In this document: in pieces, positions 8,441 through 59,003 of the stretch | Numbering within the stretch: the stretch's first letter is position 1 | Layout: the number at the start of each line of letters is the position of its first letter | Origin: Desulfomonilia bacterium | Lineage (GTDB): Bacteria > Desulfobacterota > Desulfomonilia > UBA1062 | Direction: 5' to 3' | Length of the DNA stretch: 64,000 nucleotides | Assembly: GCA_050014195.1 (NCBI GenBank) | Contig: JBEKDT010000003.1 | Coordinates: 206,204-270,203 of the forward strand | Notes under the pieces: model-generated | The model's database searches: none | What the model was told of the DNA's origin: nothing | The model's input: the letters and a program-made list of their open reading frames with translations, nothing else | Made by a program: the position numbers and the translations under genes

Positions 8441-8444
8441 GGAA

Positions 8445-8834: not shown

Positions 8835-8902
8835 CCTGTCCTCCACTGAAAATTTAAAAGTAGGCTACTTATACTTATTACATCCGCTCTGTCAACCATC
8901 AA

Positions 8903-10111: not shown

Positions 10112-10242
10112 GAACCCACCATAATACAATCGAAGATTATTTGGAGCGGCTTTAGCCGCAAAACTAAACAGTACCCACGAAAAAAATGTACACACTATGC
10201 CGCGCCCGGTGTCTTTAAAGAAATGTATCCTAATTTAATGCC

Positions 10243-11721: not shown

Positions 11722-11723
11722 CC

Positions 11724-12956
11724 ATGGAACGGGATATCGTATCCATCCTGAAAGAGCGCATTGTATCCCTTGAAGAGGGTTACGAGCAAAAGATTGCGGA
11801 GCTCTCCCTTCTCAAAGAGCTCGGGGAGGCCCTCAAGGGGACAAGCCTCTCCCATTGGAACCAGCTCTTCTTACGGCAGCTCGATATCATCAAACAGGCC
11901 ACCGGTATATACAGCATCTCGGTCATGCTCATAGACGAGCAGACCCAGACCCTGCATGTCGTGAGCGCTTCATTGATGAAGAACACACCCAATAGAGCGC
12001 CCATCCTGCTCAAAAGGGGCGAAGGGATTGCCGGCAAGGTAGTGGAGACAGGCAAGACCTTTTATATCCCTGATGTGACAAAGGACACCAACTTCTCCAA
12101 CAGGGGAACAAATCAGGAAGGGTCGCTGGCATGTGTTCCCATCATTGCGGAAGGACGCTGTATCGGGGTTATCAATTTCAGAGACAACATGCCCGGGATC
12201 TTTGGGGCCAATGACCTCAGGTTCTTCGAGCTCATCGCAGATCAGCTTTCCATTACCGCATCGCTTGTGCGGACATACCAGGACCTCCTTACCCTGGAAA
12301 AAAAACGGATGAATCTGAGCAGGTACTTCTCTCGAGGGCTGGCCGAGCACCTTGTAGCCGATGACCGCATGACTGGTCTCGGTGGGCAAAGGAAAATCGT
12401 GACCGTTGTGTTTGCCGACATCACCTCCTTCACAACACTCCTTGACAGCAACCCGGTGGAGCAGGTGGTTGAGGTGCTTAACAGGTTTTTTGAGACAGTT
12501 GTCCCGGTCATTTTTAAACATGGGGGCATGCTCGACAAGTTTCTGGGTGACGGCGTTATGGCGGTCTTTGGTATCCCGGATGAGACGGACACGGACCCGG
12601 TAAAGGCGATTCAGTGTGCCGTGGATATCCAGAAAGGCGTAATGGAGCTTAAAGATAAGCTTGTGAATGATGGGCTCTTTGCCATTGAGGTGGGTATCGG
12701 GATTGCCACCGGGTTAGTGGTAGCCGGGAATATCGGGTCGGCCGAGCAGATGAACTTTACGGTCATCGGCGAGCCTGTGAACCTTGCGCAGCGGCTCGAG
12801 ACCATCAGCTCTCCGGGAGAGATCATCGTCAGCAGCCTCACCACCGACGTGATGCCCAAGCATGTTGATGAAAAATTCTGCTTCGAGCCCATGGGATGTA
12901 TTCAGGTAAAAGGCATCCAACGTGCAATCAATGCCTTGAAAGTAATATACAAATAA
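11724..12956 (+). CDS. GAF-domain class III adenylate cyclase
   Basis: GEGIAGKVV...SLACVPI GAF; FADITSFT, DKFLGDGVMA, FTVIGEPVNLAQRLE with Lys/Thr ATP-specifying residues. Confidence 0.9.
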   Translation: MERDIVSILKERIVSLEEGYEQKIAELSLLKELGEALKGTSLSHWNQLFLRQLDIIKQATGIYSISVMLIDEQTQTLHVVSASLMKNTPNRAPILLKRGEGIAGKVVETGKTFYIPDVTKDTNFSNRGTNQEGSLACVPIIAEGRCIGVINFRDNMPGIFGANDLRFFELIADQLSITASLVRTYQDLLTLEKKRMNLSRYFSRGLAEHLVADDRMTGLGGQRKIVTVVFADITSFTTLLDSNPVEQVVEVLNRFFETVVPVIFKHGGMLDKFLGDGVMAVFGIPDETDTDPVKAIQCAVDIQKGVMELKDKLVNDGLFAIEVGIGIATGLVVAGNIGSAEQMNFTVIGEPVNLAQRLETISSPGEIIVSSLTTDVMPKHVDEKFCFEPMGCIQVKGIQRAINALKVIYK

Positions 12957-13105
12957 ATTTGTGTGGAGGGAACACAAGACCGGGCCCCTTTTGCGCTTGA
13001 CTTTGTAATTTGTTTCATTTAGTCCATGTCATACCGATTAATCAGTTTCGTGGGCCCTCACACAGTAACACCCCACATCAGCTCATAAAGCCGAAAGGAT
13101 TTTAT

Positions 13106-14353
13106 ATGCACTTAGAAGATTTAAAAAAAATGGACCCCAAGGATCTTCTCGAGACTGCGAACTCGCTGGAGATCGAGGGTTCAGCCACCATGAACAAGCA
13201 GGAGCTTATCTTTGCTATCCTCCAGGCCCAGGCCGAAAAAGATGTCTCCATCTCAGGCCAAGGGGTATTGGAGATCCTGCCCGACGGGTTCGGCTTCCTG
13301 CGTTCCGCCGACTACAGCTACCTGCCAGGCCCGGATGATATCTACGTCTCGCCTTCCCAGATCAGGAGGTTCAATCTCAAGAACGGCGATGAGGTGAGGG
13401 GCCAGATCAGGCCACCCAAGGACAACGAGCGGTATTTCGCCCTGTTGAAGCTGGAGACCATCAGCAATGAGGACCCGGAGGCAGCCAAGCACCGGGTGTC
13501 CTTTGACAACCTTACCCCGCTGTATCCCCTGAAGAAGTTCAAGCTCGAGACCGGGCCGGATAATCTCACCGGGCGTGTGCTCGATCTGCTTGTTCCTATC
13601 GGCAAGGGGCAGAGGGGCATGATCGTCTCCCCGCCCAAGGCAGGCAAGACCATGATGCTCCAGAGTGTTGCCAACAGCATAACGAAAAACCATCCCGACG
13701 TGGCATTGATGGTGCTCCTCATCGATGAGAGGCCTGAAGAGGTTACCGACATGCAGCGTTCCGTCAACGGAGAGGTCGTTGCATCCACCTTTGACGAGCC
13801 GGCTGCAAGGCACGTGCAAGTGGCCCGCATGGTCATGGAGAAGGCCAAGCGTCTTGTTGAATATAAGAAGGATGTAGTGATCCTTCTGGATTCGCTCACC
13901 AGGCTTGCCAGGGCACACAACACGGTTTGCCCCCCATCGGGCAAGCTGCTCTCGGGCGGTATTGATGCCAATGCCCTGCAAAAGCCGAAGAGGTTTTTCG
14001 GCTCGGCCCGTAACATAGAGGAGGGCGGCAGCATCACCATCATCGCTACAGCCCTGGTCGATACGGGCTCCCGAATGGATGAGGTCATCTACGAAGAATT
14101 CAAGGGCACAGGCAACCAGGAGATCCACCTTGACCGGTCAATCATGGAGAGAAGGGTCTTCCCGGCCATAGACATATCGAAATCCGGCACACGCAAAGAG
14201 GAGCTCCTGCTGCCCAAGGAGCAGCTGGATCGGATCTGGATCCTGCGGAAGCTCCTGAGCCCGCTCAATCCCATCGACAGCATAGAATTTTTGCTGGACA
14301 AATTATCTAAGACGCGTGATAATGCCGAATTTATGGATTCCATGAATAAATAG
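13106..14353 (+). CDS. rho: Transcription termination factor Rho
   Basis: [41 protein letters not shown]. Confidence 0.98.
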
Positions 14354-45726: not shown

Positions 45727-46704
45727 TTAAAACAAGCTTCTCATAAGTGAGAAGCCCTTAAACTCATCGATCATAATGGGTATGAATGTAGTGAGATCCT
45801 CCACGATGCAGTAGTGGGCCACACGGAAGATGGCTGCATTCGGATCACTGTTGACGGCCACGATGTTCTGGGATTTCTTCATACCCGAGACATGTTGGAT
45901 GGCACCCGAGATGCCGCAGGCGATGTAAAGCTTCGGCGAGACGGTCTGTCCTGTGGTGCCGATCTGGTGAGAGTATTCGAGCCATCCCGAATCGCATACC
46001 GAACGAGAAGCCCCCACTGCAGACCGAGGGAAGATCGCTGCCAATTCATTTATCAGAGATACGTTTTCCTTTTTCCCCACACCCCTGCCTGCGGCAACGA
46101 TCACCTCGGCATCCTTAAGATTGCTGTCGCGGTGTTCGACTTCCTTGATACCCAGCGTCTTGGACTTCAGGTGAGGCACAGATGCCTGAAGCATTTGTAT
46201 TGATCCCGGAGAGTTGCTTTCCGAAACAGAAGCAGGGAACGCTCCAGGGAGAACGGTGACAACAATGGAGGGGGTCTCCGGGATGATGTCAGCCATGAAT
46301 CGCCCTTGGCATAAGGCCCGGCTCAAGATATTTCCCTGAATCTTTTCCACGGAAGTGATGCACGCAGCATTGAGTTTTACTGCAATCCTCGGGGCGAGAT
46401 CATATCCCGTGGATGTATGGGCCAGGCATATCCAAGATGGGTTGTCTTTGGGGAGAATAGCTAAAATTGCATCTGAGTAGGCTTGGGTATTGTAGAGATT
46501 CAGGTGGTCGCTCGTAACGGATAGTACGTTGCATCCGGTTTTTTCTGCGAGCTCTTTGGCCTGGGTCTCATTATTCCTCCCAAGGATAATGACTGTCGGC
46601 AGCCGCCCTCCTGATAGTTCTTCGGCAAAGGTAATGAGCTCGTAGGTTTCCGGAGTAATGCAGCCCTGGTCTGATTCAGCGATGAGATAGATATCCTTTT
46701 TCAT
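45727..46704 (-). CDS. etfA: Electron transfer flavoprotein alpha subunit
   Basis: VAAGRG, QIGTTG.TVSPKLYIACGISGAIQH. Confidence 0.95.
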   Translation of the reverse strand: MKKDIYLIAESDQGCITPETYELITFAEELSGGRLPTVIILGRNNETQAKELAEKTGCNVLSVTSDHLNLYNTQAYSDAILAILPKDNPSWICLAHTSTGYDLAPRIAVKLNAACITSVEKIQGNILSRALCQGRFMADIIPETPSIVVTVLPGAFPASVSESNSPGSIQMLQASVPHLKSKTLGIKEVEHRDSNLKDAEVIVAAGRGVGKKENVSLINELAAIFPRSAVGASRSVCDSGWLEYSHQIGTTGQTVSPKLYIACGISGAIQHVSGMKKSQNIVAVNSDPNAAIFRVAHYCIVEDLTTFIPIMIDEFKGFSLMRSLF

Positions 46705-46715
46705 AGACTTTTCCG

Positions 46716-47495
46716 TTAGAGGAGCAATGATTTCTCATGGAGAGCTTGAAGGAGCTTGCGGGCTTTTTCACGCGAAGACCCTTCGATGAATATCCCCAAA
46801 GAAGTGGAATCCGGAAGCCTCACCCCCTTGCATCGCTCCCTTGTCTCCGATAAAGGAAGATCTTCTGATCTCATGACCTCCTGCTTCTGGATTCTTGCCC
46901 GCATGACGTTTGAGAGAGATGGGTATCTGGGTGTATTGATCCCGGGTTGAATGGTCAGCACCGCAGGTATTTCGAGCCGGACGGAAAGCCTTCGGCCACC
47001 TTCAATCTCTCGATCTACCATGATCGTGCTGTCTTCAGGCCGGATCTGCGTTTTGATAACAGAAGTAGCACAGGGCTTGTCCAGGAGCGCTGCAATGAGC
47101 TGGCCGGTCTGGCACGCCATATCATCCTCGGCCATGACGCCTGTCATGATCAGGTCATAGCCTTTATCGCGAGCATAGGCAGCAATGAGGGATGCAACAG
47201 CAAAGGGGCTGATATAGCCTTCGGATGGGTCTAAAATGTGGATGCCGTAATCAGCGCCCATCTCCAGGGCCCGCCGTATGGTGGAGCCCACACGTTCCGG
47301 CCCCACAGACAGTGTATGGACAACGGTCCGAACATAGTGCTCCTTGATAAGGAGTGCTTCTTCAAGGGCGAACTCGTCGAACTTGTTCATCCTGAATACT
47401 GTTAGGGGCTTGTACGATAGCCATCCGGTCCGCTCATCAAGAGCAAGTGTATCGCCTGAATCAGGGACCTGTTTGACGCACACAAGGATCTTCAC
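46716..47495 (-). CDS. etfB: Electron transfer flavoprotein beta subunit
   Basis: KILVCVKQVPD, ALEEAL, ALEMGAD, NTPRYPS; GTG start with GAGGAG. Confidence 0.93.
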   Translation of the reverse strand: MKILVCVKQVPDSGDTLALDERTGWLSYKPLTVFRMNKFDEFALEEALLIKEHYVRTVVHTLSVGPERVGSTIRRALEMGADYGIHILDPSEGYISPFAVASLIAAYARDKGYDLIMTGVMAEDDMACQTGQLIAALLDKPCATSVIKTQIRPEDSTIMVDREIEGGRRLSVRLEIPAVLTIQPGINTPRYPSLSNVMRARIQKQEVMRSEDLPLSETRERCKGVRLPDSTSLGIFIEGSSREKARKLLQALHEKSLLL

Positions 47496-47623
47496 CCTTT
47501 TAGATCTCCTCGGTTTTATTGTAGTATGAAATAGCTCAAGGGGAATGAGAATGCAAGTTAAAATAACGAGCGCTCGCTCTTTAATTCCTTGACAAAGATT
47601 CTCCCTCTTGCTATCGTTTCGGT

Positions 47624-48334
47624 ATGAGCATGATTTATCTGATCCGCCACGGCCAGGCATCCTTTGGTCATGACAACTACGACAGGCTTTCTCCCCTTGG
47701 CATCAGGCAGGCCCGTATCCTGGCCCGACACCTCTTCGATACCGGCTTTCAACCCGATGCGGTTTATTCAGGGACCATGGCCCGCCAAAAGGATACGGCA
47801 GAAGAGATGCTTGCCATCTACCGGTCAGGTGGTGGAAATCTGCCGGAACCGGAACAAGTGGGTGGTTTCAACGAGTATGATACCACCGCCATTGTGACCG
47901 CCATGTTTCCTTTTATGGTCAATGATGACCCATCTTTAAACGAGGAGCTGCCGAAGATGTATGCCAGCAAGGCATCATTCAAGAGGGTCTTCGAGACTGC
48001 CATGCTCAGGTGGGTAACCGGGAAATTTGACACATCTGAGATAGAGAGCTGGAAAGAACTCAAGGCCCGTGTTGGTGAGTCCCTGAAAGCCGTCATGGCC
48101 AGGCACGGTAAGGGCAAGACAATCGCGATTTTTACCTCGGGCGGCGCGATTGCCGCATCGCTGGCCTATGTGCTTGGCATCCCCGGTGATTATGCCATGA
48201 GGCTGAACTGGCAGATCATCAATACCTCGATATCGCGTTATATGTATAACGAAGAAAGGATCACCCTGGCGGGGTTCAATTCCATTGCCCATCTTGAGCT
48301 CACCCGTGATCCAGCACTCATCACCTACCGGTGA
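47624..48334 (+). CDS. Histidine phosphatase (phosphoglycerate mutase family)
   Basis: YLIRHGQASFG..NYD.LS..G..Q, FNEYD, FTSGG. Confidence 0.9.
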   Translation: MSMIYLIRHGQASFGHDNYDRLSPLGIRQARILARHLFDTGFQPDAVYSGTMARQKDTAEEMLAIYRSGGGNLPEPEQVGGFNEYDTTAIVTAMFPFMVNDDPSLNEELPKMYASKASFKRVFETAMLRWVTGKFDTSEIESWKELKARVGESLKAVMARHGKGKTIAIFTSGGAIAASLAYVLGIPGDYAMRLNWQIINTSISRYMYNEERITLAGFNSIAHLELTRDPALITYR

Positions 48335-48362
48335 TGAATTAAACTTATAAAGGAGTGCGCCC

Positions 48363-49571
48363 ATGGATTTCGAAGTCCCGGATAAGATAAAGGCCATAAC
48401 AGGCATGATGGACGAGTTTGTGGACAAGGAGCTTATCCCTCTGGAACCGGAGTTTCTCCATAAGACCTTCAGGGAGATGCTGCCGGTGCTCAATCAAAAG
48501 AGGGAGATGGTTAAAAAGATGGAGCTCTGGGCCCCGAACCATCCGAAAGAGTACGGTGGAATGGGGCTTGACCTCGTGGAGCATGCCTTTGTCTCCGAGT
48601 CGCTCGGCAGAAGCCCGATCGGGCACTTTGTCTTCAATTGCCAGGCCCCGGATGCAGGAAACATCGAGATCCTCCACCTGCACGGATCTAAGGAGCAGAA
48701 AGAGAAATATTTAAGGCCGCTGATCGAGGGCAAGATCAGGAGCTGTTTTTCCATGACCGAGGTGGAGATGCCCGGCTCCAACCCCGTGATGATGGACACT
48801 ACTGCAGTCAAGGACGGGGATGACTATATCATCAATGGACAGAAGTGGTACTCCACTGCTGCCGACGGCTCAGCCTTCTCCATAGTCATGGCTGTGACCA
48901 ACCCGGAAGCCCCTGCGTACATGCAGGCGAGCATGATTATCGTGCCGACGGATACCAAGGGGTTCAATCTGGTCAGGAATATCCCGGTCATGGGACATGC
49001 GGGTGATGATTATGCCTCCCACGGCGAGATCCTGTTCCAGTCGTGCCGTGTCCCGCAGAAGAACCTCCTGGGACCGGAAGGTTACGGCTTCATCATTGCC
49101 CAGGAGCGCCTTGGCCCCGGCCGAATCCATCACTGCATGCGATGGATCGGCATCTGCAACCGTGCATTTGACCTCATGTGCTCCCGGGCACAAAAACGCA
49201 TCATCCAGCCCGACGGCAAGACTCTGGCAACCAAGCAGATCATCCAGGCATGGATTGCCGAGTGTGCGGCAAATATCCAGGCCGCCCGCCTCATGACGCT
49301 CAATGCCGCATGGAAGATAGATAAGCTCGGCGCAAAGGCAGCCCGCTATGATGTGTCTTTCATTAAATTCTTCGTGGCGAATGTCATGCAGGAGGTCATC
49401 GACAAGGCCTTGCAGGTTCACGGCGGCATGGGCATGACGGATGACACCATCATCGCATATTTCTACCGCCATGAGCGCGCTGCCCGCATCTATGACGGTG
49501 CGGATGAGGTCCACAAGATGTCCGTGGCCAAGAGGATCCTCAGGGATTATGAGGGAAAGACTGTCCGTTAG
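48363..49571 (+). CDS. Acyl-CoA dehydrogenase, ACAD10/11 or LvaC-like
   Basis: NCQAPDAGN, RSCFSMTE, QERLGPGRIHHCMR, RIYDGADEVH (Asp in place of the usual catalytic Glu). Confidence 0.9.
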   Translation: MDFEVPDKIKAITGMMDEFVDKELIPLEPEFLHKTFREMLPVLNQKREMVKKMELWAPNHPKEYGGMGLDLVEHAFVSESLGRSPIGHFVFNCQAPDAGNIEILHLHGSKEQKEKYLRPLIEGKIRSCFSMTEVEMPGSNPVMMDTTAVKDGDDYIINGQKWYSTAADGSAFSIVMAVTNPEAPAYMQASMIIVPTDTKGFNLVRNIPVMGHAGDDYASHGEILFQSCRVPQKNLLGPEGYGFIIAQERLGPGRIHHCMRWIGICNRAFDLMCSRAQKRIIQPDGKTLATKQIIQAWIAECAANIQAARLMTLNAAWKIDKLGAKAARYDVSFIKFFVANVMQEVIDKALQVHGGMGMTDDTIIAYFYRHERAARIYDGADEVHKMSVAKRILRDYEGKTVR

Positions 49572-50270
49572 ATGGAAAAAGATCTGAAGTTTGATGCATT
49601 CAAAGATGTTCTCTCTTTAACCATGGAGGACATGTCCCGGGAGCTCTTCCAGGGCAACAGGGAAACCATCAAGATCAAGAAGGAAGGGGTGGCGGTCAAG
49701 AACCTCGTCAAGATACTGAATGCAGCCCTGAATCTGAGTAACGAAAAGGGCTTTGCAGCCATGAGCCTGAGGGATTTGAGTGCAGCGGCGGGCTTAAGCA
49801 TGGGTGCTCTTTACACCTACTTTACCAGTAAGGAAGAGCTTCTTCACATGATCCAGCGACAGTCAAACGTTGTTGCACAGGTACTCTTGGACCAGATAAA
49901 GGGCATTGATAATCCGCGCATGAAGCTCAGGCGTGTGATCCAGGCCCATCTCTACTTGAGCGAGGTCATGCAGCAGTGGTTCTACTTCGCCTATATGGAA
50001 GCCAAAAACCTGGCCAAGGAAGAGCAGAAGAAGGCTATCGAATCCGAACTCTTGACGGAAAAGATCCTCATCGACATCATGAAGGAAGGCCAGGAGAAGG
50101 GGGTCTTTAAGGCAGCCAATATAGAGCTTACCGGGGCAGTGATCAAGGCCATGCTCCAGGACTGGTACCTGAAACGGTGGAAATACGCACGGAGAAAGGT
50201 TACGGTTGAAAAATACGCCGCGTTCCTTGTTGATCTCATTGAGTCGTACCTTACAGCACCGCAATCATGA
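49572..50270 (+). CDS. TetR-family regulator
   Basis: GFAAMSLRDLSAAAGLSMGALYTYFTSKEEL. Confidence 0.92.
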   Translation: MEKDLKFDAFKDVLSLTMEDMSRELFQGNRETIKIKKEGVAVKNLVKILNAALNLSNEKGFAAMSLRDLSAAAGLSMGALYTYFTSKEELLHMIQRQSNVVAQVLLDQIKGIDNPRMKLRRVIQAHLYLSEVMQQWFYFAYMEAKNLAKEEQKKAIESELLTEKILIDIMKEGQEKGVFKAANIELTGAVIKAMLQDWYLKRWKYARRKVTVEKYAAFLVDLIESYLTAPQS

Positions 50271-50287
50271 GGCAGAAAGGGGAGCCA

Positions 50288-51352
50288 ATGGACTTTATTG
50301 ACAGGCCAACAAAGATACGGCAGGGAGAAGAACTCGACCTGAATGTGGTTGAGGGGTTTTTGAAGGACACTATACCCGGATTATCCGGGGACCTCATGGT
50401 GGAGCAGTTTCCGAGCGGTTTCTCAAACCTTACATACCTCATCAGGGTGGGGAACACGGACCTGGTACTGAGGAGGCCGCCATTCGGCCGCAAGGCCAAG
50501 ACCGCCCACGACATGGGCAGGGAGTACCGGATACTCAATGCCCTTCATCCTGTCTATCCCTATTGCCCGAAACCGCTTCTGTATACCGAGGACGAGTCCA
50601 TCATGGGCTGCCCATTTTATGTGATGGAGCGCATCAACGGGATCATCCTGAGAAAGAAGCTTCCCAAAGGTCTTGCGTATACCCCGGATCAGATGCGCAC
50701 CCTGTGCGAGAATCTATTGGACGTGCACTACCAGCTCCACGCCATCGACTACAAGGCAATAGGCCTGGATGGGTTTGGAAGGCCTGAAGGTTATGTGAAG
50801 AGGCAGGTGCAAGGATGGTCGGAGAGATACAAGGGGGCCTGGACACCGGACGCGCCGACCTTTGAGAAGGTTATACAATGGCTTTATGACAAGATGCCCC
50901 CTGATTTTGAGAAACCCGCCGTTATCCACAACGACTACAAGTTTGACAATGTGGTGCTCTCACCCGATGATCCTCTCAAGATCATAGGGGTTCTCGACTG
51001 GGAGATGGCAACTATCGGCGACCCGCTTATGGATCTGGGCAACTCGCTCGGTTACTGGGTTCAGGCCGATGACACCCCCGAGGTACAAATGGCAGGTATG
51101 CTCCCCACCAATCTGCCCGGCGCCCTTACCCGCGCAGAGATGGTCAAGCGGTATGCGGACAAGGCGGGCATCACCATCGACAACTTTGATTTCTATCTCT
51201 TCTTCGGGTTCTTCCGTATTGCAGTGATTCTCCAACAGATCTATTACCGCTCCTATCATGGGCAGACCAAAGACGAGCGATTCAAGGTGCTCATCTTCGC
51301 CGTGCATATCATTGACGCAGAATTCAAAAAGCATCTCTCGGGCTATGTATGA
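50288..51352 (+). CDS. APH-like phosphotransferase, ACAD10/11 kinase or LvaA-like
   Basis: GFSNLTY, VLRRPP, HDMGRE, FYVME, HNDYKFDN, LDWEMATIGDPLMDL. Confidence 0.9.
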   Translation: MDFIDRPTKIRQGEELDLNVVEGFLKDTIPGLSGDLMVEQFPSGFSNLTYLIRVGNTDLVLRRPPFGRKAKTAHDMGREYRILNALHPVYPYCPKPLLYTEDESIMGCPFYVMERINGIILRKKLPKGLAYTPDQMRTLCENLLDVHYQLHAIDYKAIGLDGFGRPEGYVKRQVQGWSERYKGAWTPDAPTFEKVIQWLYDKMPPDFEKPAVIHNDYKFDNVVLSPDDPLKIIGVLDWEMATIGDPLMDLGNSLGYWVQADDTPEVQMAGMLPTNLPGALTRAEMVKRYADKAGITIDNFDFYLFFGFFRIAVILQQIYYRSYHGQTKDERFKVLIFAVHIIDAEFKKHLSGYV

Positions 51353-51377
51353 TACATGGCTGCCGGCTTGAATGAAT

Positions 51378-51409
51378 AAGGCGGAGCATGCTGCCCCGCC
51401 TTTTCTTTT
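51378..51409 (+). terminator. Intrinsic terminator between convergent genes
   Basis: AAGGCGGAGCA-TGC-TGCCCCGCCTT followed by TTCTTTT. Confidence 0.65.
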
Positions 51410-51465
51410 AAGACCTGTCTATTCTTTATTCCTTGGGATACATCGCTTTGATCAGTGGTGGAGGC

Positions 51466-52956
51466 TTACAGCTTGGTGAGAGTACCCGGCTTCAACTTTT
51501 CCACGCCTGCCAAGTAATTCACCAGGTGTTCGCGTGACTTGATATCGTACTGTGAGGTGATGGCGATCTCCTCCATGATGGGCGATCCGCCGCCATGATA
51601 GTTCCCGTAGTTCATGGGGCCGGTGAAGCCCGAGCATGAGTAGTCTATAAAGAGCATCCAGAATTTGATCTGATCCTCTACGGATGCGCCTGGGTTGCGG
51701 TTGAGGTACTTCTCCAGGAGAGGCTTGAGCTCCGGGTTCAGGAGGTCGCCTTCGTTGGGGAAGGTGGCGGGTAGACCGCCTGCAATACTGCAGAGCATCT
51801 CCTGCTCTTCGAACACCGCCTCGCCGGTGAGGCACCTGCCCACATTGGCATAGATGGAATTCGGTATGCAGCTGCCCGGGCCATAGGGCACCGGACCCAG
51901 GCCCGGGATATAGACCTCGGGCTTTCCAAAAGCCGATGCCGTATAGCCGGCGGCATAGCCGAGTTCGGTGATCTTGATGAACTCGGCGAGCATCGTCCTG
52001 ATGTGGCCGGTCTTCCTAATGCCGTTGTGCCGTGCGGCCATAGATGCCATGCCGGTCAGCACATCGCCGATCGCCGGCTTGCAGCCCGAGTAGCTGTGGC
52101 GGTGGAACAAGGCGAACAGGAGTGCGCAGATACCGCCGTGGTCGTTCTCGCCACAGAGGAAGACCCTGTCCCAGGGAACAAAGACGTCATCGAAGATCAG
52201 GTATGAATCCGTGTAGCCGCCGGCGAATCCTTTGTGATAGTGCTTGCGCTTCCGGAAATTGTGGATGGACAGTACCTGCTTGACGCCCTCATGATCGGCC
52301 GGGACCGCGAATGCCACGGCATAATCCTTTTCGTCCGGACCGAGCGCCCTGGTGGGGATGACCAGGATCTCGTCGGCTATGGATGCCTCTGATATATGGA
52401 GCTTGCAGCCCCTTACCACGATGCCGTCGCTCCTTTTCTCAACCACATGCAGGTACATGTCCGGATCGGTCTGTTCAATGGGCCTCTTCAGCCGTTCGCC
52501 CTTGATGTCGGTCTGGGCGCAGCAGCCCACAAGGTCATTTTCCTGGAAGTTGGTAAGCCATTTCAGGAAGTTCTTGTGATACTCTGTCTTCCCGCCGTTC
52601 AGCTTGTCGGCTTCGAATGAAGCCGCGTTGACGGCGTTGATGGAGTCTATGCCCATGCAGCGCTGGATGCAGAAGCCGACTTTGCGGCACAGGGCGCGTG
52701 TCATGTTCTGCTTTTTATGGAGATCCTCCGTATTCTGATGGACATGACAGAAGCGGTTGATGGTCTTGCCCGTAAGGTGTGACTTCGCGGTGCATAGATC
52801 CTTGAGCTCCGGGTCTGTGGCAGCATCAAAGGTGACGCCCATGACCTCAAGGGTAGGCATCTGCAGCTCGTCATCACGGTCAATGATTGACCCGTTGTAG
52901 TAGAGATTCCTGCGCATCTTCCCTAACCCTTCGATGTATTGTTTCTTTGTTCTCAT
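51466..52956 (-). CDS. 4-hydroxybutyryl-CoA dehydratase/vinylacetyl-CoA isomerase (AbfD/HpaB-fold) homologue, divergent
   Basis: INRFCH, CIQRC, AQTDIKG, FDDVFVPWDRVFL, HRHSYSGCK, HGGGSP. Confidence 0.85.
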   Translation of the reverse strand: MRTKKQYIEGLGKMRRNLYYNGSIIDRDDELQMPTLEVMGVTFDAATDPELKDLCTAKSHLTGKTINRFCHVHQNTEDLHKKQNMTRALCRKVGFCIQRCMGIDSINAVNAASFEADKLNGGKTEYHKNFLKWLTNFQENDLVGCCAQTDIKGERLKRPIEQTDPDMYLHVVEKRSDGIVVRGCKLHISEASIADEILVIPTRALGPDEKDYAVAFAVPADHEGVKQVLSIHNFRKRKHYHKGFAGGYTDSYLIFDDVFVPWDRVFLCGENDHGGICALLFALFHRHSYSGCKPAIGDVLTGMASMAARHNGIRKTGHIRTMLAEFIKITELGYAAGYTASAFGKPEVYIPGLGPVPYGPGSCIPNSIYANVGRCLTGEAVFEEQEMLCSIAGGLPATFPNEGDLLNPELKPLLEKYLNRNPGASVEDQIKFWMLFIDYSCSGFTGPMNYGNYHGGGSPIMEEIAITSQYDIKSREHLVNYLAGVEKLKPGTLTKL

Positions 52957-52967
52957 ACAAACCTCCG

Positions 52968-53684
52968 TTAGTGATGCTGTTTTTGCATGCGGCGTGTTAT
53001 GGTTTTTTTCGTCTCCTGAGGGGTGTCCGATTTTTCCAATGAGATCCCGTCTTCTCCGATATGCAGGTGTAGCGTGATGCTCTTCGGATGTCTTTGAACC
53101 TTTATGCCGTCGAGTATCAGATCCATGAGCGGGTCGACATGCTCCATGAGATTGGATGGGGTGCCCATAAGATGCATCCTGGTGCAGATGTGTTCGATGG
53201 TCCCTAAGATCATGGACCTGACCAGAAAGGGGTCAATGTCCTTTTTGAAAGTTCCGTCTTCGATGCCTTCCTTGATGCAGGCCAGCAGCATGCGTGCAGC
53301 GCTGCGCACTACCGTGTAGGCCTTGGTTTTCAGAAAGTTCCTGTTGCACTTCAGGTGAAGCATTATGAGATTTGCATACTGCGGGTTTGTTTCGTAGGTG
53401 GCCACGTAGCTCTGCACAATGGCCCTGAGCTTTGACTCGGCCCCGCGCAGGTAAGGCAGGACCTTCTCGGTTTCCCTGATGGAATTCTCCGTAATCTCCT
53501 CGGGAATAGCAAAGAGCAGTTCTTCCTTGCTCTTGAAATACTCATATACGGTTGCATCAGAGACCCCCGCAGCCTTGCTTATCTCAGAGATGGTTGCATC
53601 CTGGAAACCTTTTTCAGCAAAGATCCTCAAGGCGGATTCGATGATCCGGACTCTTCTTGCAGCCTTGGGGTTTATCTTTGTCAT
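52968..53684 (-). CDS. TetR-family regulator (FadR-like)
   Basis: FAEKGFQDATISEISKAAGVSDATVYEYFKSKEELL. Confidence 0.92.
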   Translation of the reverse strand: MTKINPKAARRVRIIESALRIFAEKGFQDATISEISKAAGVSDATVYEYFKSKEELLFAIPEEITENSIRETEKVLPYLRGAESKLRAIVQSYVATYETNPQYANLIMLHLKCNRNFLKTKAYTVVRSAARMLLACIKEGIEDGTFKKDIDPFLVRSMILGTIEHICTRMHLMGTPSNLMEHVDPLMDLILDGIKVQRHPKSITLHLHIGEDGISLEKSDTPQETKKTITRRMQKQHH

Positions 53685-53760
53685 GATATGCTTTGTTTAT
53701 AGTATGACTCTATATTTGTCAAGATAAAATTGACTTCAACTATTTTTTCATGTATGAGAA

Positions 53761-53777
53761 TCATAGTGCAACTATGA
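53761..53777. promoter_or_regulatory. Candidate TetR operator
   Basis: Perfect 7-3-7 palindrome TCATAGT-GCA-ACTATGA in the AT-rich divergent promoter region. Confidence 0.5.
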
Positions 53778-53829
53778 ATTATCCATAATTAACGTATTTT
53801 CAATTTTTGAATTATGAGCACAATGGAAT

Positions 53830-56800
53830 ATGTGTAAGAATATGGTTATGCAAAAGATGAAGCTCCTCATCGCAAACAGGGGCGAGATAGCCATTCGCAT
53901 CGCCCGTGCGGCAGCGGGACTCGGCATACGTACCGTGGCCGTGTATTCGGCTGATGATGCCCAGTCACTGCACACGCGAGCTGCGGACGAGGTTTACGCC
54001 CTGAAAGGCACCGGTACCCCGGCTTACCTTGATAGAGAGCAGATCCTTGCAATGGCCCTGAAGGCCGGCTGCAACGCTGTTCACCCGGGGTACGGATTTC
54101 TCAGCGAGAGTGCAGTCTTTTCCCGTCGATGTGCCGAGGAGGGGCTGACGTTCGTCGGCCCCAGCGTGGAAGTGCTTGAGCTGTTCGGCGACAAAGCAAA
54201 AGCGAGAGCATTTGCCGTGCAGTGCGGTGTTCCCGTACTCCCTGCTACATCGGGAGCCACAAGCCTTGAGGAGGCAAAGGCCTTCTTCTCATCGCTCGGC
54301 AGCAATGCCGCAGTCATGATCAAGGCCCTTGCAGGCGGTGGCGGACGAGGTATGCGGCCGGTCTACAGCCTTGCAGATCTCGATGAGGCCTATGAGCGCT
54401 GTGTCTCAGAGGCGCGTGCTTCCTTCGGGCTTGGTGATGTCTATGTCGAGCGGCTTATCCGGCAGCCCAGGCATATCGAGGTTCAGATTATAGGTGACGG
54501 TACACGGGTGATTCATCTCGGCGAGCGCGAATGTACCCTCCAGCGGCGCAACCAGAAGCTCATCGAGGCGGCCCCGAGCCCGACCCTTTCTCAGGGGCTC
54601 CGGAAAAAGATAACCGATGCGGCGCTGCGTCTCGCACAGGAGGCCCGCTATAAGAGTCTTGGCACCTTCGAGTTCCTCGTCGATTCTACAACCACGGATG
54701 AGGATGCATTCACCTTTCTGGAGGTCAACCCGCGGCTCCAGGTGGAGCACACGGTGACCGAGGAATCAACCGGTGTCGATCTCGTCATGACCCAGATTGA
54801 GATCGCCTCCGGCAGATCGCTCATGGACCTCGGTCTCGCTGAAGGAGTTGCGCAGCCCCGCGGCTATTCGCTCCAGCTTCGCATCAACATGGAGACTTTC
54901 GATGCGAGCGGCAGCGTCAGTCCGGCCGGCGGTACCTTGAAGGTCTATGAGGTGCCGTCAGGGCCCGGCATACGGGTCGATGGATATGGCTATGCCGGAT
55001 ACACGGCCAATCCCGCCTTTGATTCGCTGCTTGCCAAGCTGATCGTCACTTCACGCTCACCTCGATATGAAGACGTGGTTGCAAAGGCCTACCGGGCGCT
55101 CAGGGAATTCCGGATCGAAGGGATCGAGACGAACAGAGAGTTTCTGTCCGGCCTGCTGCGTATGCCGGAGGTGGCCCGGAATGAGGTCTACACACGCTTT
55201 ATCGAAGACAATATCGCTGAGCTTAGGGTGGCTTCCGAAGAGTATCAAACAGGTATCTTCGAGGGGCTGGTGAAAGAGGCCCTCTTAAAAAGCGAAGAAC
55301 CCGCACAAGCGGCACCCGAGGGCACCATCCCGGTGAGGGCGCCCATGCAGGGCCGTGTGGTAAGCCTTGAGGTGGCTGACAATGATGCTGTTGCAGCCGG
55401 ACAGAGGGTGGCGGTGCTCGATGCCATGAAGATGGAGCACGTCATAACCGCAGATCGGAGCGGGTATGTGAGACGCGTGTGCGTGACGCCCTTTGAGGTT
55501 GTCCTCAAAGGGGCCCCGCTTATCTTCCTCGAAGAGGCGCAGATAGAGGCGGGTTTGTCGGATTGTGAGGAGGATTTTGACCTTGATGCGATCCGGCCCG
55601 ACCTTGCCGAGGTCATAGAACGCCACGCATTCGGCCTCGATGAGAAAAGGCCCGAGGCGGTTGCGCGACGGCGAAAGAAGAATCAGCGCACCGCCCGTGA
55701 GAATATCGAGGACCTGTGCGACCCCGGCAGTTTCATCGAGTACGGGGCGCTCCTCCTCGCTGCACAACGGAGGCGCAAGCCGTTGGATGAGCTCATCAGG
55801 ACGACACCTGCCGACGGATTGATCACCGGCATCGGGACGGTCAACGGCCCTTTGTTCGGAGAGGATAAGGCCCGCTGCATGGTTATGGCATATGACTATA
55901 CCGTGCTGGCCGGGACCCAGGGTTTGATGAACCACAAGAAAATGGACCGCATGCTGAGCGTGGCGCACGAATGGCAATTGCCGCTGGCCCTGTTCGCCGA
56001 AGGCGGGGGGGGAAGGCCGAGTGACACCGATGCAAATGTGGTTGCGGCCCTCGATATCACTACGTTCAGCCGGTTTGCGGGCCTCAGCGGGAAAGTCCCG
56101 CTCATAGGCATTGTGTCCGGACCGTGTTTTGCGGGAAACGCTGCATTGCTTGGCTGTTGCGATGTGATCATTGCCACCGAGAATTCCAATATCGGCATGG
56201 GCGGACCCGCAATGATCGAAGGCGGGGGGCTCGGCGTGACCAAGGCTGAAGATATCGGTCCGATTGATGTTCAGACACGTAACGGCGTCGTCGATATTGC
56301 CGTGGCCGATGAGGCCGAAGGGGTGGCAGTCGCGAAGAAATATCTCTCGTATTGCCAGGGCCCGACATCCCTCTGGGAAGCTGCGGACCAGCGCCTGCTT
56401 CGAAGGGTAATCCCGGAAAACAGGGTACGCGTTTATGACATGCACGCTGTTATCGAGATGCTCGCTGATATTGGTTCGGTGTTGGAGCTGCGGCCACATT
56501 TCGGGCCGGGGATGATCACTGCGCTTCTTCGGATCGAAGGGAGGCCCTTCGGCGCAATAGCAAACAATCCCATTCACATGGGCGGGGCTATAGAGGCGGA
56601 AGCGGCGGACAAGGCCGCACGATTCATGCAGCTCTGCAATGCACATGGACTGCCTATCATTTCTCTGTGTGACACACCGGGGTTCATGGTCGGTCCCGAA
56701 ATAGAGACACGTGCTCAGGTCCGGCACGTATGCCGGATGTTTGTTACTGGGGCACATGTACAGGTCCCGTTCTTCACGGTCGTCTTGCGCAAAGGCTATG

Positions 56801-57144
56801 GTCTTGGAGCGATGGCCATGGCGGGCGGCGGCTTCCATGACTCTTTCTTTACCGCTTCCTGGCCCTCGGGTGAATTCGGCGCCATGGGTCTCGAAGGGGC
56901 TGTTAAGCACGCCTTCAGAAAAGAGCTCGCGGCAATTAACGATCCGGCGGAGCGTGAAGCAACCTTCAAGTTTCTCGTAGGCCAGGCCTATGAAGGGGGT
57001 AAGGCCATCAATACGGCTTCTTACCTCGAGATCGACGCCGTGATCGACCCGGCGGATACCCGCATGTGGATCATGCGCGGTTTGAAGTCACTTCCTGCCG
57101 GGTCAACCCCCAAGGCCGGTCGCCCGTTTATCGATACCTGGTGA
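53830..57144 (+). CDS. Single-chain biotin-dependent acyl-CoA carboxylase (BC-BCCP-CT)
   Basis: LIANRGEIA, HPGYGFLSE, GGGGRGM, LEVNPRLQVEH; AMKM biotin site; CT motifs LAGTQG, GGGGRP, DTPGFMVG; start may be 53848 or 53857. Confidence 0.93.
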   Translation: MCKNMVMQKMKLLIANRGEIAIRIARAAAGLGIRTVAVYSADDAQSLHTRAADEVYALKGTGTPAYLDREQILAMALKAGCNAVHPGYGFLSESAVFSRRCAEEGLTFVGPSVEVLELFGDKAKARAFAVQCGVPVLPATSGATSLEEAKAFFSSLGSNAAVMIKALAGGGGRGMRPVYSLADLDEAYERCVSEARASFGLGDVYVERLIRQPRHIEVQIIGDGTRVIHLGERECTLQRRNQKLIEAAPSPTLSQGLRKKITDAALRLAQEARYKSLGTFEFLVDSTTTDEDAFTFLEVNPRLQVEHTVTEESTGVDLVMTQIEIASGRSLMDLGLAEGVAQPRGYSLQLRINMETFDASGSVSPAGGTLKVYEVPSGPGIRVDGYGYAGYTANPAFDSLLAKLIVTSRSPRYEDVVAKAYRALREFRIEGIETNREFLSGLLRMPEVARNEVYTRFIEDNIAELRVASEEYQTGIFEGLVKEALLKSEEPAQAAPEGTIPVRAPMQGRVVSLEVADNDAVAAGQRVAVLDAMKMEHVITADRSGYVRRVCVTPFEVVLKGAPLIFLEEAQIEAGLSDCEEDFDLDAIRPDLAEVIERHAFGLDEKRPEAVARRRKKNQRTARENIEDLCDPGSFIEYGALLLAAQRRRKPLDELIRTTPADGLITGIGTVNGPLFGEDKARCMVMAYDYTVLAGTQGLMNHKKMDRMLSVAHEWQLPLALFAEGGGGRPSDTDANVVAALDITTFSRFAGLSGKVPLIGIVSGPCFAGNAALLGCCDVIIATENSNIGMGGPAMIEGGGLGVTKAEDIGPIDVQTRNGVVDIAVADEAEGVAVAKKYLSYCQGPTSLWEAADQRLLRRVIPENRVRVYDMHAVIEMLADIGSVLELRPHFGPGMITALLRIEGRPFGAIANNPIHMGGAIEAEAADKAARFMQLCNAHGLPIISLCDTPGFMVGPEIETRAQVRHVCRMFVTGAHVQVPFFTVVLRKGYGLGAMAMAGGGFHDSFFTASWPSGEFGAMGLEGAVKHAFRKELAAINDPAEREATFKFLVGQAYEGGKAINTASYLEIDAVIDPADTRMWIMRGLKSLPAGSTPKAGRPFIDTW

Positions 57145-57249
57145 CACGGGAATGGTGCACTATGGTGAAGATGGATGGGCCGAGGTGATGTCGGCATAAA
57201 CACGACGAGGGTCTTCTAGCCCTCACAGAAATACATAGAGGAGACGATC

Positions 57250-58014
57250 ATGGACAAGGTGGATTTCAGCTTAAAGGGAAAGACAGCAGTAGTGACAGGG
57301 GCCAGCAGGGGAATAGGAGAGGCCATAGCCGTAACTTTGGCCGATTACGGGGCGCACTGTATCCTCGTGAGCCGGAAGGCGGATGCGCTGGCAGGGGTAG
57401 CGGAGAAGATCGCAGCCCGAGGGGGCAAGGCTGAGGTAATGGCCTGCCATGTGGGTGACCTCAAGCAGATAGAGGGTCTGTTCGGCCGGATCAAGGAGAA
57501 ACACGGCAAGCTCCATATCCTTATTAACAATGCAGCCACCAATCCCTATTTTGGTGAGATGCTGGGGGCGGATGAGGGGATCTGGACCAAGACCTTTGAT
57601 GTGAACCTGAAGGGGCCGTTCTTCCTGATACAGCATGCAGCCAAGCTCATGGCGGAATCAGGCGGTGGATCAATCGTGAACGTATCCTCTGTCAACGGGG
57701 TGAAGCCTGCGCTGCTCCAGGGGATCTACTCAATCACCAAGGCCGGGCTCATTTCCATGACACAGGCCTTTGCCAAGGAGCTGGCCCACAAGAACATCCG
57801 GGTGAATGCGCTGCTGCCCGGGTTGGTGGACACTCACTTTTCCAAGGCGATCATGGATAATGAAGCCATCCACGACATAGCCGTGAAGATGATCCCCATG
57901 GGGAGGCATGCCCAGCCCATGGAGTTAGCAGGAGTGGTGCTCTACCTGGTATCGGATGCGGCATCGTTTACGACCGGAGCGAGTTTCGTGGTGGACGGCG
58001 GGGCCCTGGCATAG
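57250..58014 (+). CDS. Short-chain dehydrogenase/reductase (DHRS4/FabG-like)
   Basis: TGASRGIG, NNAATNPYFG, YSITK, VDGG. Confidence 0.93.
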   Translation: MDKVDFSLKGKTAVVTGASRGIGEAIAVTLADYGAHCILVSRKADALAGVAEKIAARGGKAEVMACHVGDLKQIEGLFGRIKEKHGKLHILINNAATNPYFGEMLGADEGIWTKTFDVNLKGPFFLIQHAAKLMAESGGGSIVNVSSVNGVKPALLQGIYSITKAGLISMTQAFAKELAHKNIRVNALLPGLVDTHFSKAIMDNEAIHDIAVKMIPMGRHAQPMELAGVVLYLVSDAASFTTGASFVVDGGALA

Positions 58015-58079
58015 CATCAGCGTGCAGATTTATACGATGTACACATACGAGACTAACCAAAACTTAAGAGGGGAACCAT

Positions 58080-59003
58080 ATGAAGATTGAAGACATCAAA
58101 CGAGTGCTCATCCTTGGCGCAGGGACTATGGGCCAGCAGATCGGGCTGCAGTGCGCCATGAACGGATACGAGGTTGTGTATTATGATATCTCACAGGATG
58201 TTCTGGATGACGCGATAAAACGTGTGACCAAGCTCGCCTCCTGGTATGCATCCACCGGACGCCTCACCCAGGAGCAGCTCAAAGAGACCCTTGCAAGGAT
58301 AACCTCAACGATCGACCCGGTAAAGGCGGCCCACGAGGTTGATTTTATCAGTGAGTCGGTGCCGGAAGATCCGGCTCTGAAAGGCAAGGTGTTCGCCCAG
58401 TTCAACAAGCTCTGCCCCGAGCGAACCATCTTTACCACCAATACCTCCTATCTCGTACCCTCCATGTTTGCAGAGGCCTCAGGCAGGCCTGAAAAATTGG
58501 CAGCGCTCCATTTCCACGACCTGAGGATCAGCAATGTCGTGGATGTCATGCCGCATCCGGGAACCGCTCCCGAGGTGACTCGGCTCGTCCATGACTTTGC
58601 CGTGAGCATCGGTCAGATCGTCATCATGCTCCACCGGGAAAACTATGGGTACGTGTTCAATACTATGATCTCGAGCCTCTTCTTCTCGGCCATGACCCTG
58701 GCATCCAAGGACGTCAGCTCTGTTGAGGATATCGACAGGGCCTGGATCGGGATCACCCATATGCCCATCGGCCCCTTCGGCCTCATGGACCAGATAGGTC
58801 TGAAGACGGTATGGACCATCACCGACTACTGGGCCAAGAAGGCGGGAGACCAGCAGTCCCAGCAAAACGCCGATTTCCTTAAACAGTATGTAGACAGGGG
58901 CGAACTCGGTTATAAGACGAACAAAGGCTTCTATTCGTATCCGAAACCTGCATATCAGGATGCGAATTTCCTCACAGGGGAGACAAAGAAGGAGAAATCT
59001 TAA
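58080..59003 (+). CDS. 3-hydroxyacyl-CoA dehydrogenase family
   Basis: GAGTMG, ESVPE...K, TNTS, LHF, GPFGLMD.IGL, G.LGYK..KGFY. Confidence 0.88.
   Translation: MKIEDIKRVLILGAGTMGQQIGLQCAMNGYEVVYYDISQDVLDDAIKRVTKLASWYASTGRLTQEQLKETLARITSTIDPVKAAHEVDFISESVPEDPALKGKVFAQFNKLCPERTIFTTNTSYLVPSMFAEASGRPEKLAALHFHDLRISNVVDVMPHPGTAPEVTRLVHDFAVSIGQIVIMLHRENYGYVFNTMISSLFFSAMTLASKDVSSVEDIDRAWIGITHMPIGPFGLMDQIGLKTVWTITDYWAKKAGDQQSQQNADFLKQYVDRGELGYKTNKGFYSYPKPAYQDANFLTGETKKEKS

Follow-up and report, generated by a model that had tools for sequence, protein, structure and literature searches.

Gene sets of the lva type have been described in Pseudomonas putida KT2440 and Pseudomonas citronellolis LA18T, homologous kinase and dehydrogenase domains are known from mammalian ACAD10 and ACAD11, and radical dehydratases of the AbfD family are known from Clostridium aminobutyricum and Nitrosopumilus. 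Counterparts of these systems lie side by side in a Desulfomonilia bacterium (assembly GCA_050014195.1, contig JBEKDT010000003.1, positions 206,204 to 270,203). This stretch of 64,000 nucleotides is called the window in the following, and the locus under study occupies its positions 45727 to 59003. It carries genes for a predicted 4-hydroxyacyl-CoA kinase and an acyl-CoA dehydrogenase (ACAD)-fold enzyme and, next to them, a gene for an AbfD-like FAD/[4Fe-4S] enzyme.

The lvaABCDE genes of P. putida KT2440 and the window have in common the logic of a kinase, an ACAD and a short-chain dehydrogenase/reductase (SDR), in which a 4-oxo or 4-hydroxy acid is converted through 4-phosphoacyl-CoA to enoyl- or 3-hydroxyacyl-CoA. 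In contrast to P. putida, the locus has no room for a gene of the 12-kDa LvaB type, has a phosphatase homologue and an electron-transfer flavoprotein (ETF) in addition, and has no acyl-CoA synthetase gene. The genes for the phosphatase homologue (hisPhos-like gene), the ACAD, the regulator TetR1 and the kinase are tightly packed (gap of 28 bp between hisPhos and ACAD, 0 bp between ACAD and tetR1, 4-bp overlap of the tetR1 stop and the kinase start), and no gap among these four genes has the size of an open reading frame for a small LvaB-like protein.

Levulinate induces lva cluster 2 of P. citronellolis LA18T, in which homologues of LvaA and LvaC and an LvaD-type SDR are encoded together with a member of the histidine phosphatase family; LvaB is missing from it (PMC6692424). 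The same four gene families (APH kinase, histidine-phosphatase homologue, LvaC-type ACAD and SDR), again without LvaB, are found in the window; the likeness is one of gene families. The combination of kinase and ACAD with a phosphatase homologue is already published in that report. In the window, unlike in P. citronellolis, a TetR gene is embedded in the operon instead of the sigma54-type LvaR, a dedicated etfBA pair lies divergently, the SDR belongs to a neighbouring cassette, and the host is an anaerobe-type deltaproteobacterium.

Mammalian ACAD10 and ACAD11 (Protein Data Bank entries 8v3u, 8v3v and 2wbi; PMC12440821, PMC11342911) contain homologous kinase and ACAD domains, and all of their named catalytic and phosphate-binding residues are kept in the window's proteins. 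In the window the genes are split and not fused, and the partner protein has a histidine-phosphatase fold and not the HAD fold found in ACAD10. The AbfD-like protein has the fold of C. aminobutyricum AbfD (1u8v) and of Nitrosopumilus 4HBD (6vjr) and keeps C99, C103, H292, C299, Y296, K300 and R90 (1u8v numbering). It differs from C. aminobutyricum AbfD in the replacement of E455 by Gly, E257 by Asp, M149 by Gln, A460 by Gly and Q466 by Glu, and it has Ser at position 190. The carboxylase gene encodes the same single-chain BC-BCCP-CT architecture as the long-chain acyl-CoA carboxylase (LCC) of Mycobacterium avium subsp. paratuberculosis (4rcn), with an end-to-end alignment (residues 11 to 1083, 1135.6 bits) and the biotinylation motif AMKM (Lys534); its position before the SDR gene and the 3-hydroxyacyl-CoA dehydrogenase (HADH) gene is specific to this lineage.

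Two probably separate cassettes abut at the locus

Open reading frames and domain searches confirmed the gene content, gene order and strands given for the region by the original prediction, in which it had been described as a candidate catabolic island. The domain E-values at the locus ranged from 1e-15 to 1e-230 in profile searches and are far past chance. Cassette A comprises etfBA and, divergent from it, the genes for the phosphatase homologue, the ACAD, TetR1 and the kinase; at the sequence level it is a split bacterial form of ACAD10/ACAD11 (lva route). Cassette B is a separate unit, in which tetR2 and the abfD-like gene are divergent from the LCC, SDR and HADH genes. We consider it rather probable that the locus represents two separately regulated cassettes that abut in this lineage, and not one co-inherited island, and that they provide parallel entry routes into beta-oxidation instead of successive steps in a single pathway.

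The window's genome (G000; 4.2 Mb, 29 contigs) was compared with related genomes; in the following, G-labels denote genomes and L-labels denote loci. A kinase-centred set comprised 20 loci of 10 to 20 kb from 20 genomes of the genus, the family and the sister family. An AbfD-centred set comprised the 80 loci with the closest AbfD-like relatives (47 to 91% identity; best 80 of more than 592), and its neighbour counts are lower bounds, many contigs being short. The presence of the kinase and of an orthologue of the AbfD-like protein (at least 66% identity) was determined in 41 genomes. The kinase gene lay beside an AbfD-like gene in 2 of the 20 kinase-centred loci. Among the 80 AbfD-centred loci, a kinase gene was a neighbour in one (L005) and an LCC gene in none. 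Both the kinase and the AbfD-like orthologue were present in 13 of the 41 genomes, only the kinase in 17, only the orthologue in 5 and neither in 6, so that the kinase occurs in 30 of these genomes. In the 13 genomes with both, the genes were adjacent in 5 (G000, G001, G004, G007 and G011) and apart in 7 (G002, G006, G008, G009, G012, G013 and G018); G010 is undeterminable on its 3.3-kb contig. The co-conservation of three transcription units that had been expected for the region is not borne out by these neighbourhoods.

Each cassette recurred in its own surroundings. The kinase-centred loci contained the ACAD gene in 20 of 20 cases, the phosphatase homologue and etfB in 19 each and tetR1 and etfA in 18 each, with etfA no more than 10 kb from the kinase and with most misses at contig ends. 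A tetR2 gene lay beside the AbfD-like gene in 16 of the 80 AbfD-centred loci (upstream on the same strand in 12), and orthologues of at least 50% identity were found for the SDR in 7 and for the HADH in 10 of them. In a set of 12 loci centred on an AbfD-like gene apart from the kinase, tetR2 was located upstream in 9. The abfD-like gene, tetR2 and a divergent SDR-HADH pair are located on contigs other than that of the kinase in G002, G008, G006 and G018, and the same arrangement of cassette B was found in loci L003 to L006 from metagenome-assembled genomes (MAGs), of which L003 is the G018 locus fetched again. L022 and L023 contain the cassette B genes in other orders. G003 (L107) keeps the window's synteny from FTHFS through LCC, tetR2, the abfD-like gene and tetR1 to the left flank, without the kinase, ACAD, phosphatase homologue, etfBA and histidine kinase genes; its tetR1 (70%) is still beside the abfD-like gene. 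Cassette B therefore persists without the enzymes of cassette A.

Analysis of the intergenic regions revealed a palindrome, ACGAGCGCTCGCT, in the spacer between etfB and hisPhos, 12 bp upstream of TTGACA. A site of this type occurs once in the window. A like palindrome (CGARCGYTCG) was present at the same place in the spacers of 8 of 16 relatives and absent from 5, and 3 slices were too short. Upstream of tetR2, the inverted repeat TGTCAAG-N6-TTGAC is visible in 11 of 15 regions, the window included. This repeat and ATCATAGTGCAACT are each represented by a single site in the window; scanning the whole genome added only one further site, for the repeat. Neither cassette's motif was found in the promoter region of the other cassette in motif scans. 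The two cassettes thus carry different conserved operator-like motifs, which argues against the single co-regulated island. The ACGAGCGCTCGCT motif is a putative TetR1 operator, at which TetR1 would repress the cassette A operon by the -35 box; TGTCAAG-N6-TTGAC and ATCATAGTGCAACT are candidate TetR2 operators. TetR2 resembles Bacillus FadR/YsiA (NF053878 FadR, 121 bits, below the cut-off of 200), and cassette B would be controlled by a FadR-like repressor that probably senses fatty acyl-CoA. Behind the kinase gene lies a GC-rich, terminator-like hairpin with a run of T, which also speaks for separate units.

Related SDR-HADH pairs occur with both cassettes. An orthologous pair directly follows the kinase gene in 5 of 20 relatives, and in a sixth an acyl-CoA synthetase gene lies between. 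In G008, G006 and G018 the pair after the kinase is a second one, present in addition to that of cassette B. Phylogenetic analysis of 26 HADH rows placed the window's copy in an AbfD-linked clade (SH-aLRT 97) whose sister is a kinase-linked clade (SH-aLRT 95), and kinase-linked copies from the sister family branched further out. The SDR tree was poorly resolved. The SDR scored above the NF005446 cut-off of 373, had its best solved structures in DHRS4 (3o4r, 2e-47) and has no second copy of this type in the genome; the HADH scored above the NF006143 cut-off of 312. The role of an LvaD-like 4-oxo reductase that had been proposed for the SDR fits the synteny with the kinase in relatives and the P. 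citronellolis cluster; this part of the proposal is plausible, and the reductase role itself is suggested by gene position.

Several observations weigh against a separation of the cassettes and against the roles assigned to them. The cassettes are adjacent in 5 genomes of the genus, and L005 has a different arrangement (AbfD-like gene, SDR and convergent kinase); such repeated adjacency might be the outcome of selection for co-location. Either cassette is accompanied by SDR-HADH pairs from sister clades and by acyl-CoA synthetases (FadD11-like and downstream of the AbfD-like gene in G001, G008 and G006; between kinase and SDR in G024), and the two may therefore be more closely related in function than mere neighbours would be. 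A single SDR-HADH pair of this type is present in G000, and both of its cassettes may depend on it. All genomes compared are draft assemblies, in which contig ends conceal some neighbours. For cassette A in particular, the dedicated and conserved ETF fits poorly with the ACAD10/11 reaction, which requires no external electron acceptor, and alkylglycerol kinase activity has been reported for several prokaryotic homologues of the kinase, together with a crystal structure of the C. thermarum protein (preprint 10.1101/2025.09.10.675409).

L005 (592-9748), a MAG contig, contains two copies each of tetR2, HADH and SDR around one abfD-like gene and a kinase gene and resembles a mosaic of the two cassettes. 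In L114 (G007:C2:163000-182900) the kinase gene and the AbfD-like gene each match in two pieces, which may represent frameshifted or decaying copies or an assembly error.

Kinase and ACAD of cassette A

Searching for solved structures related to the ACAD revealed ACAD11 as the best match (2wbi, 6e-84; 8v3u, 3e-82), with the best ordinary ACAD at 3.5e-48. The residues specific to ACAD10, ACAD11 and LvaC are an upstream Arg (R626 in mouse ACAD11), the HCMR motif (H634 and R637) and a catalytic Asp (D753) that replaces the usual Glu (PMC12440821). The window's protein contains the motif GPGRIHHCMR at residue 251, ERLGPGRIHHCMR at residues 247 to 259 and YDGADEVH at residues 377 to 384. Alignment to 8v3u revealed that R249, H256-C-M-R259 and the catalytic Asp378 are kept. 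The ACAD gene is single-copy in the genome, and the other ACADs are at most 31% identical.

The kinase had its best solved match in 9o56 (2e-98) and matched the kinase domain of ACAD11 with 8e-51. Entry 9o56 is taken to be the C. thermarum kinase structure of preprint 10.1101/2025.09.10.675409, with which name, fold and length agree. The motifs defined in that preprint (HxDxK, DWE, beta3 Arg and alphaC Glu) are found as HNDYKFDN at residue 221 (HxDxK with the metal-binding Asn), DWE at 244, LRRPP at 68 (beta3 Arg) and HDMGRE at 81 (alphaC Glu). The kinase gene is also single-copy in the genome. With all signature residues and motifs present, the assignment of kinase and ACAD as a putative pair of the LvaA/LvaC (ACAD10/11) type agrees with the original prediction. 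Kinase and ACAD orthologues from Burkholderia pseudomallei can substitute for the ACAD10 domains in vitro (PMC11342911). By analogy, the kinase would phosphorylate 4-hydroxyacyl-CoA, and the ACAD-fold enzyme would eliminate the phosphate to give 2-enoyl-CoA and partly 3-hydroxyacyl-CoA, which could enter beta-oxidation. Cassette A would extend the known lva/ACAD10-11 route to an anaerobe.

The fullest lva-like operon observed is located in L086 of G024 (5740-13115), where the genes for the phosphatase homologue, ACAD, TetR1, kinase, acyl-CoA synthetase, SDR and HADH lie on one strand and etfBA is divergent. The acyl-CoA synthetase of this operon scored above the cut-off of NF004837.

Phosphatase homologue and ETF

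The catalytic core of branch 1 of the histidine phosphatases consists of Arg-His (RHG), a second Arg and a second His. Alignment of the phosphatase homologue to 9mmh revealed that RHG, R54 and E84 are kept and that Ser172 occupies the position of the second catalytic His. The protein thus lacks the complete branch 1 core. The sequence S172-G-G is invariant in 20 of 20 orthologue rows and in 19 of 19 rows of a second alignment. The absence of the second catalytic His from all orthologues examined weakens the idea that this protein acts as a proofreading phosphatase. In ACAD10, the HAD domain carries an incomplete DxD motif, shows negligible phosphatase activity and restrains the kinase; this degenerate domain parallels the window's phosphatase-fold partner with its incomplete catalytic set. 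By analogy, the phosphatase homologue may be a non-catalytic or altered partner.

The genome encodes four ETF pairs, and the EtfA protein of the window's pair shares no more than 35% identity with the other three. Cassette A sharpens two questions, namely, why a private ETF lies beside a redox-neutral enzyme and what a phosphatase-fold partner whose active site is defective contributes.

The AbfD-like protein belongs to a distinct subfamily

The best solved structure for the AbfD-like protein is 1u8v (310 bits, 2e-91); a canonical paralogue in G000 (C1:219005-220471) matched the same structure with 668 bits. Residues were compared in 94 subfamily rows of at least 45% identity, in which a few genes were fetched twice. 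The cluster ligands C99, C103, H292 and C299 are kept in 93 to 94 of the 94 rows, Y296 and K300 in all 94 and R90 in 93. Position 149 (Met in 1u8v) is Gln in all rows. E257 is replaced by Asp in 82 rows, A460 by Gly in 92 and Q466 by Glu in 92. E455 is replaced by Gly, Ala or Ser in 92 rows and by a gap in 2 and is never Glu. T190, E257, Y296 and E455 have been reported to be important for 4-hydroxybutyryl-CoA dehydratase activity. The nearly invariant Glu466 might be a relocated acid or base.

G000 has five members of the AbfD family, three of which have the full canonical residue set. One of them, the canonical paralogue named above, lies in L117 (C1:216765-223241) with genes for a sigma54 activator, an AbfT-like CoA-transferase and Fe-ADH, the classical 4-hydroxybutyrate cluster. 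The two others lie in the contexts ACAD, HADH, abfD and thiolase and ACS, patatin, ECH, abfD and thiolase (L116, C1:3980-8834; L118, C6:201081-207437). The fifth member, without a cluster, is encoded at C2:251076-252482. No abfT or 4hbD neighbour is present at the locus of the window's AbfD-like gene. Since canonical abfD copies exist elsewhere in the genome, the window's copy is unlikely to be the cell's 4-hydroxybutyryl-CoA dehydratase. The loss of E455, the change of E257 to Asp and the three canonical copies speak against the canonical function implied by the original prediction. The AbfD-like enzyme would most likely dehydrate or isomerise a hydroxy- or enoyl-acyl-CoA other than 4-hydroxybutyryl-CoA.

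Besides Desulfobacterota, the subfamily extends to Chloroflexota and Bacillota and, among the archaea, to Archaeoglobaceae, Bathyarchaeota and Asgard archaea. AbfD-like proteins of 62 to 65% identity are encoded in Asgard MAGs (Promethearchaeota, Hermodarchaeota) and in one MAG labelled "uncultured archaeon" (L031 to L037, L039, L040, L044, L046 and L052). Of these loci, L033 and L037 were checked and have the same altered active-site pattern; inter-domain transfer of the subfamily is suggested by these archaeal proteins. The gene is accompanied by thiolase and MaoC hydratase genes in L076 and by an ACAD gene in L024; beyond occasional ACAD, thiolase and MaoC genes, no common partner was found in the Asgard and Chloroflexota subfamily loci. 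Within the papers covered by the literature search, no characterised subfamily member was found, nor any AbfD with 4-hydroxyvaleryl-CoA or 4-hydroxyacyl-CoA as substrate. A role in alkene degradation has been proposed for the AbfD homologues of A. fulgidus and D. alkenivorans, a proposal relayed in PMC3949148.

Cassette B draws attention to a large and uncharacterised group within the AbfD family of radical enzymes. In genomes of anaerobes and Asgard archaea, members of this group are commonly annotated as 4-hydroxybutyryl-CoA dehydratase despite the loss of a residue required for this reaction, and pathway reconstructions that use this name (4-hydroxybutyrate cycles, butyrate routes) may be wrong for these copies.

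A 516-amino-acid carboxyl-transferase is encoded beside the AbfD-like gene in L030 (5430-9288; ACAD, AbfD-like gene, carboxyl-transferase and SDR on one strand), L109 (9269-12399) and L110 (6149-11894). L109 and L110 also hold a sigma54 activator gene.

The carboxylase as a probable addition of this lineage

The LCC gene is located between tetR2 and the SDR gene in G000, G001 and G003 and after the kinase-linked HADH gene in G008. Copies of 63% identity in G006, G009, G012 and G024 have no SDR, HADH or AbfD neighbours, and LCC was rejected as a general partner of the SDR-HADH pair on the basis of these four genomes. Horizontal acquisition inferred from base composition was dropped, the GC content of the LCC gene being 0.589 compared with 0.600 for FTHFS and 0.564 for the AbfD-like gene. 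LCC is read as a lineage-specific addition. At L107 (G003:C1:1-19900), an extra abfD paralogue (35%) lies between LCC and tetR2.

Proposed routes and alternative readings

In the reading of two abutting cassettes, the SDR would supply a keto reduction, and the HADH would oxidise the resulting 3-hydroxyacyl-CoA. Gene content, signature residues, synteny counts and motif conservation were observed directly; the substrates, the pairing of repressors with operators and the functions assigned to the SDR, the ETF, the phosphatase homologue and the carboxylase are inferred. The original prediction went further and regarded the AbfD-like enzyme and the kinase/ACAD pair as two solutions to the same step, the net conversion of 4-hydroxyacyl-CoA to 2-enoyl-CoA. 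One enzyme would use ATP-free radical chemistry, the other an ATP-driven, oxygen-tolerant route; substrates would be split by chain length or stereochemistry, and the SDR and HADH would be shared. This is a hypothesis suggested by the related SDR-HADH pairs and by the acyl-CoA synthetases that relatives encode with either cassette, and it is consistent with the single SDR-HADH pair available to both cassettes in G000. The retention of the [4Fe-4S] ligands, Y296, K300 and R90 in the subfamily and its beta-oxidation contexts in L076 and L024 also fit. The changes E455G and A460G could free space for a C4 substituent, and the preference of the ACAD10 kinase for the R isomer, about fourfold, leaves a niche for a second enzyme. 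The missing co-conservation of the cassettes, their distinct operator-like motifs, the consistent loss in 94 rows of a Glu reported to be important for dehydratase activity and the lack of a characterised subfamily member in the literature searched all speak against it, and we regard a shared step as unlikely. The wider claim that the subfamily consists of ATP-independent radical dehydratases for 4-hydroxyacyl-CoAs beyond C4, interchangeable in this genus with the kinase/ACAD pair before sister SDR-HADH pairs, is speculative and appears unlikely; if it were true, anaerobes could channel 4-oxo and 4-hydroxy fatty acids into beta-oxidation by two routes with unrelated mechanisms.

The altered active site is open to another interpretation, in which cassette B is unrelated to 4-hydroxy acids and the AbfD-like protein is a 3-enoyl- or vinylacetyl-CoA isomerase or another hydroxyacyl-CoA enzyme in a pathway linked to carboxylation or decarboxylation. 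Canonical AbfD also has vinylacetyl-CoA isomerase activity, entry 6vjr carries this title, and the loss of E455 would fit altered chemistry. The alkene-degradation proposal for the A. fulgidus and D. alkenivorans homologues (PMC3949148) is also in line with this reading. The carboxyl-transferases of L030, L109 and L110 and the LCC of the window point in the same direction, although carboxylase neighbours were found in only 3 of the 80 AbfD-centred loci, plus two loci of family f2 and three LCC loci of the genus. LCC is also absent from the same cassette in G002, G006, G008 and G018, and its 63% copies lie apart from the cassette, which makes this interpretation quite improbable. For cassette A, a function in the salvage of ether lipids or other lipids would mean that the kinase uses 1-O-alkylglycerols as substrates and that a lipid phosphate is the substrate of the phosphatase homologue, as has been claimed for ACAD10. 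The reported alkylglycerol kinase activity and the retention of a phosphatase-type partner in 19 of 20 loci agree with such a function. The preprint describing this activity leaves the relation of the two activities open, and the partner is without the second catalytic His. The context, moreover, is that of acyl-CoA metabolism: the kinase gene is translationally coupled to that of an ACAD with a phosphate pocket, accompanied by TetR and ETF genes, and relatives add SDR-HADH and acyl-CoA synthetase genes; the same gene set is induced by levulinate in P. citronellolis (PMC6692424). Lipid salvage is accordingly very improbable.

Layout of the locus

The features of the locus are compiled in Table 1. 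The etfB reading frame of 314 amino acids is too long. Its start was revised because NCBIfam alignments begin at residue 56 to 57 of the long frame and an AGGAG precedes a GTG at 47495; the revised N-terminus is VKILVCVKQVPD, and the divergent spacer between etfB and hisPhos then measures 128 bp.

Table 1. Features of the locus in window coordinates
Feature	Position	Strand	Basis
etfA, electron-transfer flavoprotein alpha subunit	45727-46704	-	ETF_alpha 2e-33, ETF 2e-25
etfB, electron-transfer flavoprotein beta subunit	46716-47495	-	ETF domain 3e-28; revised GTG start
Palindrome ACGAGCGCTCGCT, candidate TetR1 operator/promoter of hisPhos-ACAD-tetR1-kinase	47566-47578	.	Sequence inspection
Atypical histidine-phosphatase-superfamily protein	47624-48334	+	His_Phos_1 1.6e-21
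ACAD10/11/LvaC-type ACAD-fold enzyme, predicted 4-phosphoacyl-CoA phosphate eliminase	48363-49571	+	ACAD11 structures, signature residues
TetR-family regulator 1 (tetR1)	49572-50270	+	TetR_N 8e-15, TetR_C_24 1e-8
LvaA/ACAD10-type APH-fold kinase, predicted 4-hydroxyacyl-CoA kinase	50267-51352	+	APH 3e-47
GC-rich hairpin followed by TTTTCTTTT, terminator-like, between the convergent kinase and AbfD-like genes	51378-51402	+	
AbfD-like FAD/[4Fe-4S] enzyme, distinct subfamily	51466-52956	-	HpaB_N 4e-85 and HpaB; 1u8v 2e-91
TetR-family regulator 2 (tetR2), first gene of the tetR2-abfD-like operon	52968-53684	-	TetR_N 4e-17, TetR_C_4 2e-12
TGTCAAG-N6-TTGAC inverted repeat and ATCATAGTGCAACT, candidate TetR2 operators, LCC-SDR-HADH promoter	53717-53734; 53760-53773		
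Single-chain BC-BCCP-CT biotin carboxylase, LCC type, 1104 aa	53830-57144	+	Six domains
Classical SDR, DHRS4/carbonyl-reductase-like, candidate oxoacyl-CoA reductase	57250-58014	+	NF005446 392.5 bits
3-Hydroxyacyl-CoA dehydrogenase (HADH)	58080-59003	+	3HCDH_N, 3HCDH; NF006143 346 bits

The flanking genes are unrelated to the cassettes. On the left, a hybrid histidine kinase gene adjoins the locus, with SMC, MoaA and MetH genes further upstream. On the right, genes for a SerB-like ACT-HAD protein and FTHFS follow.

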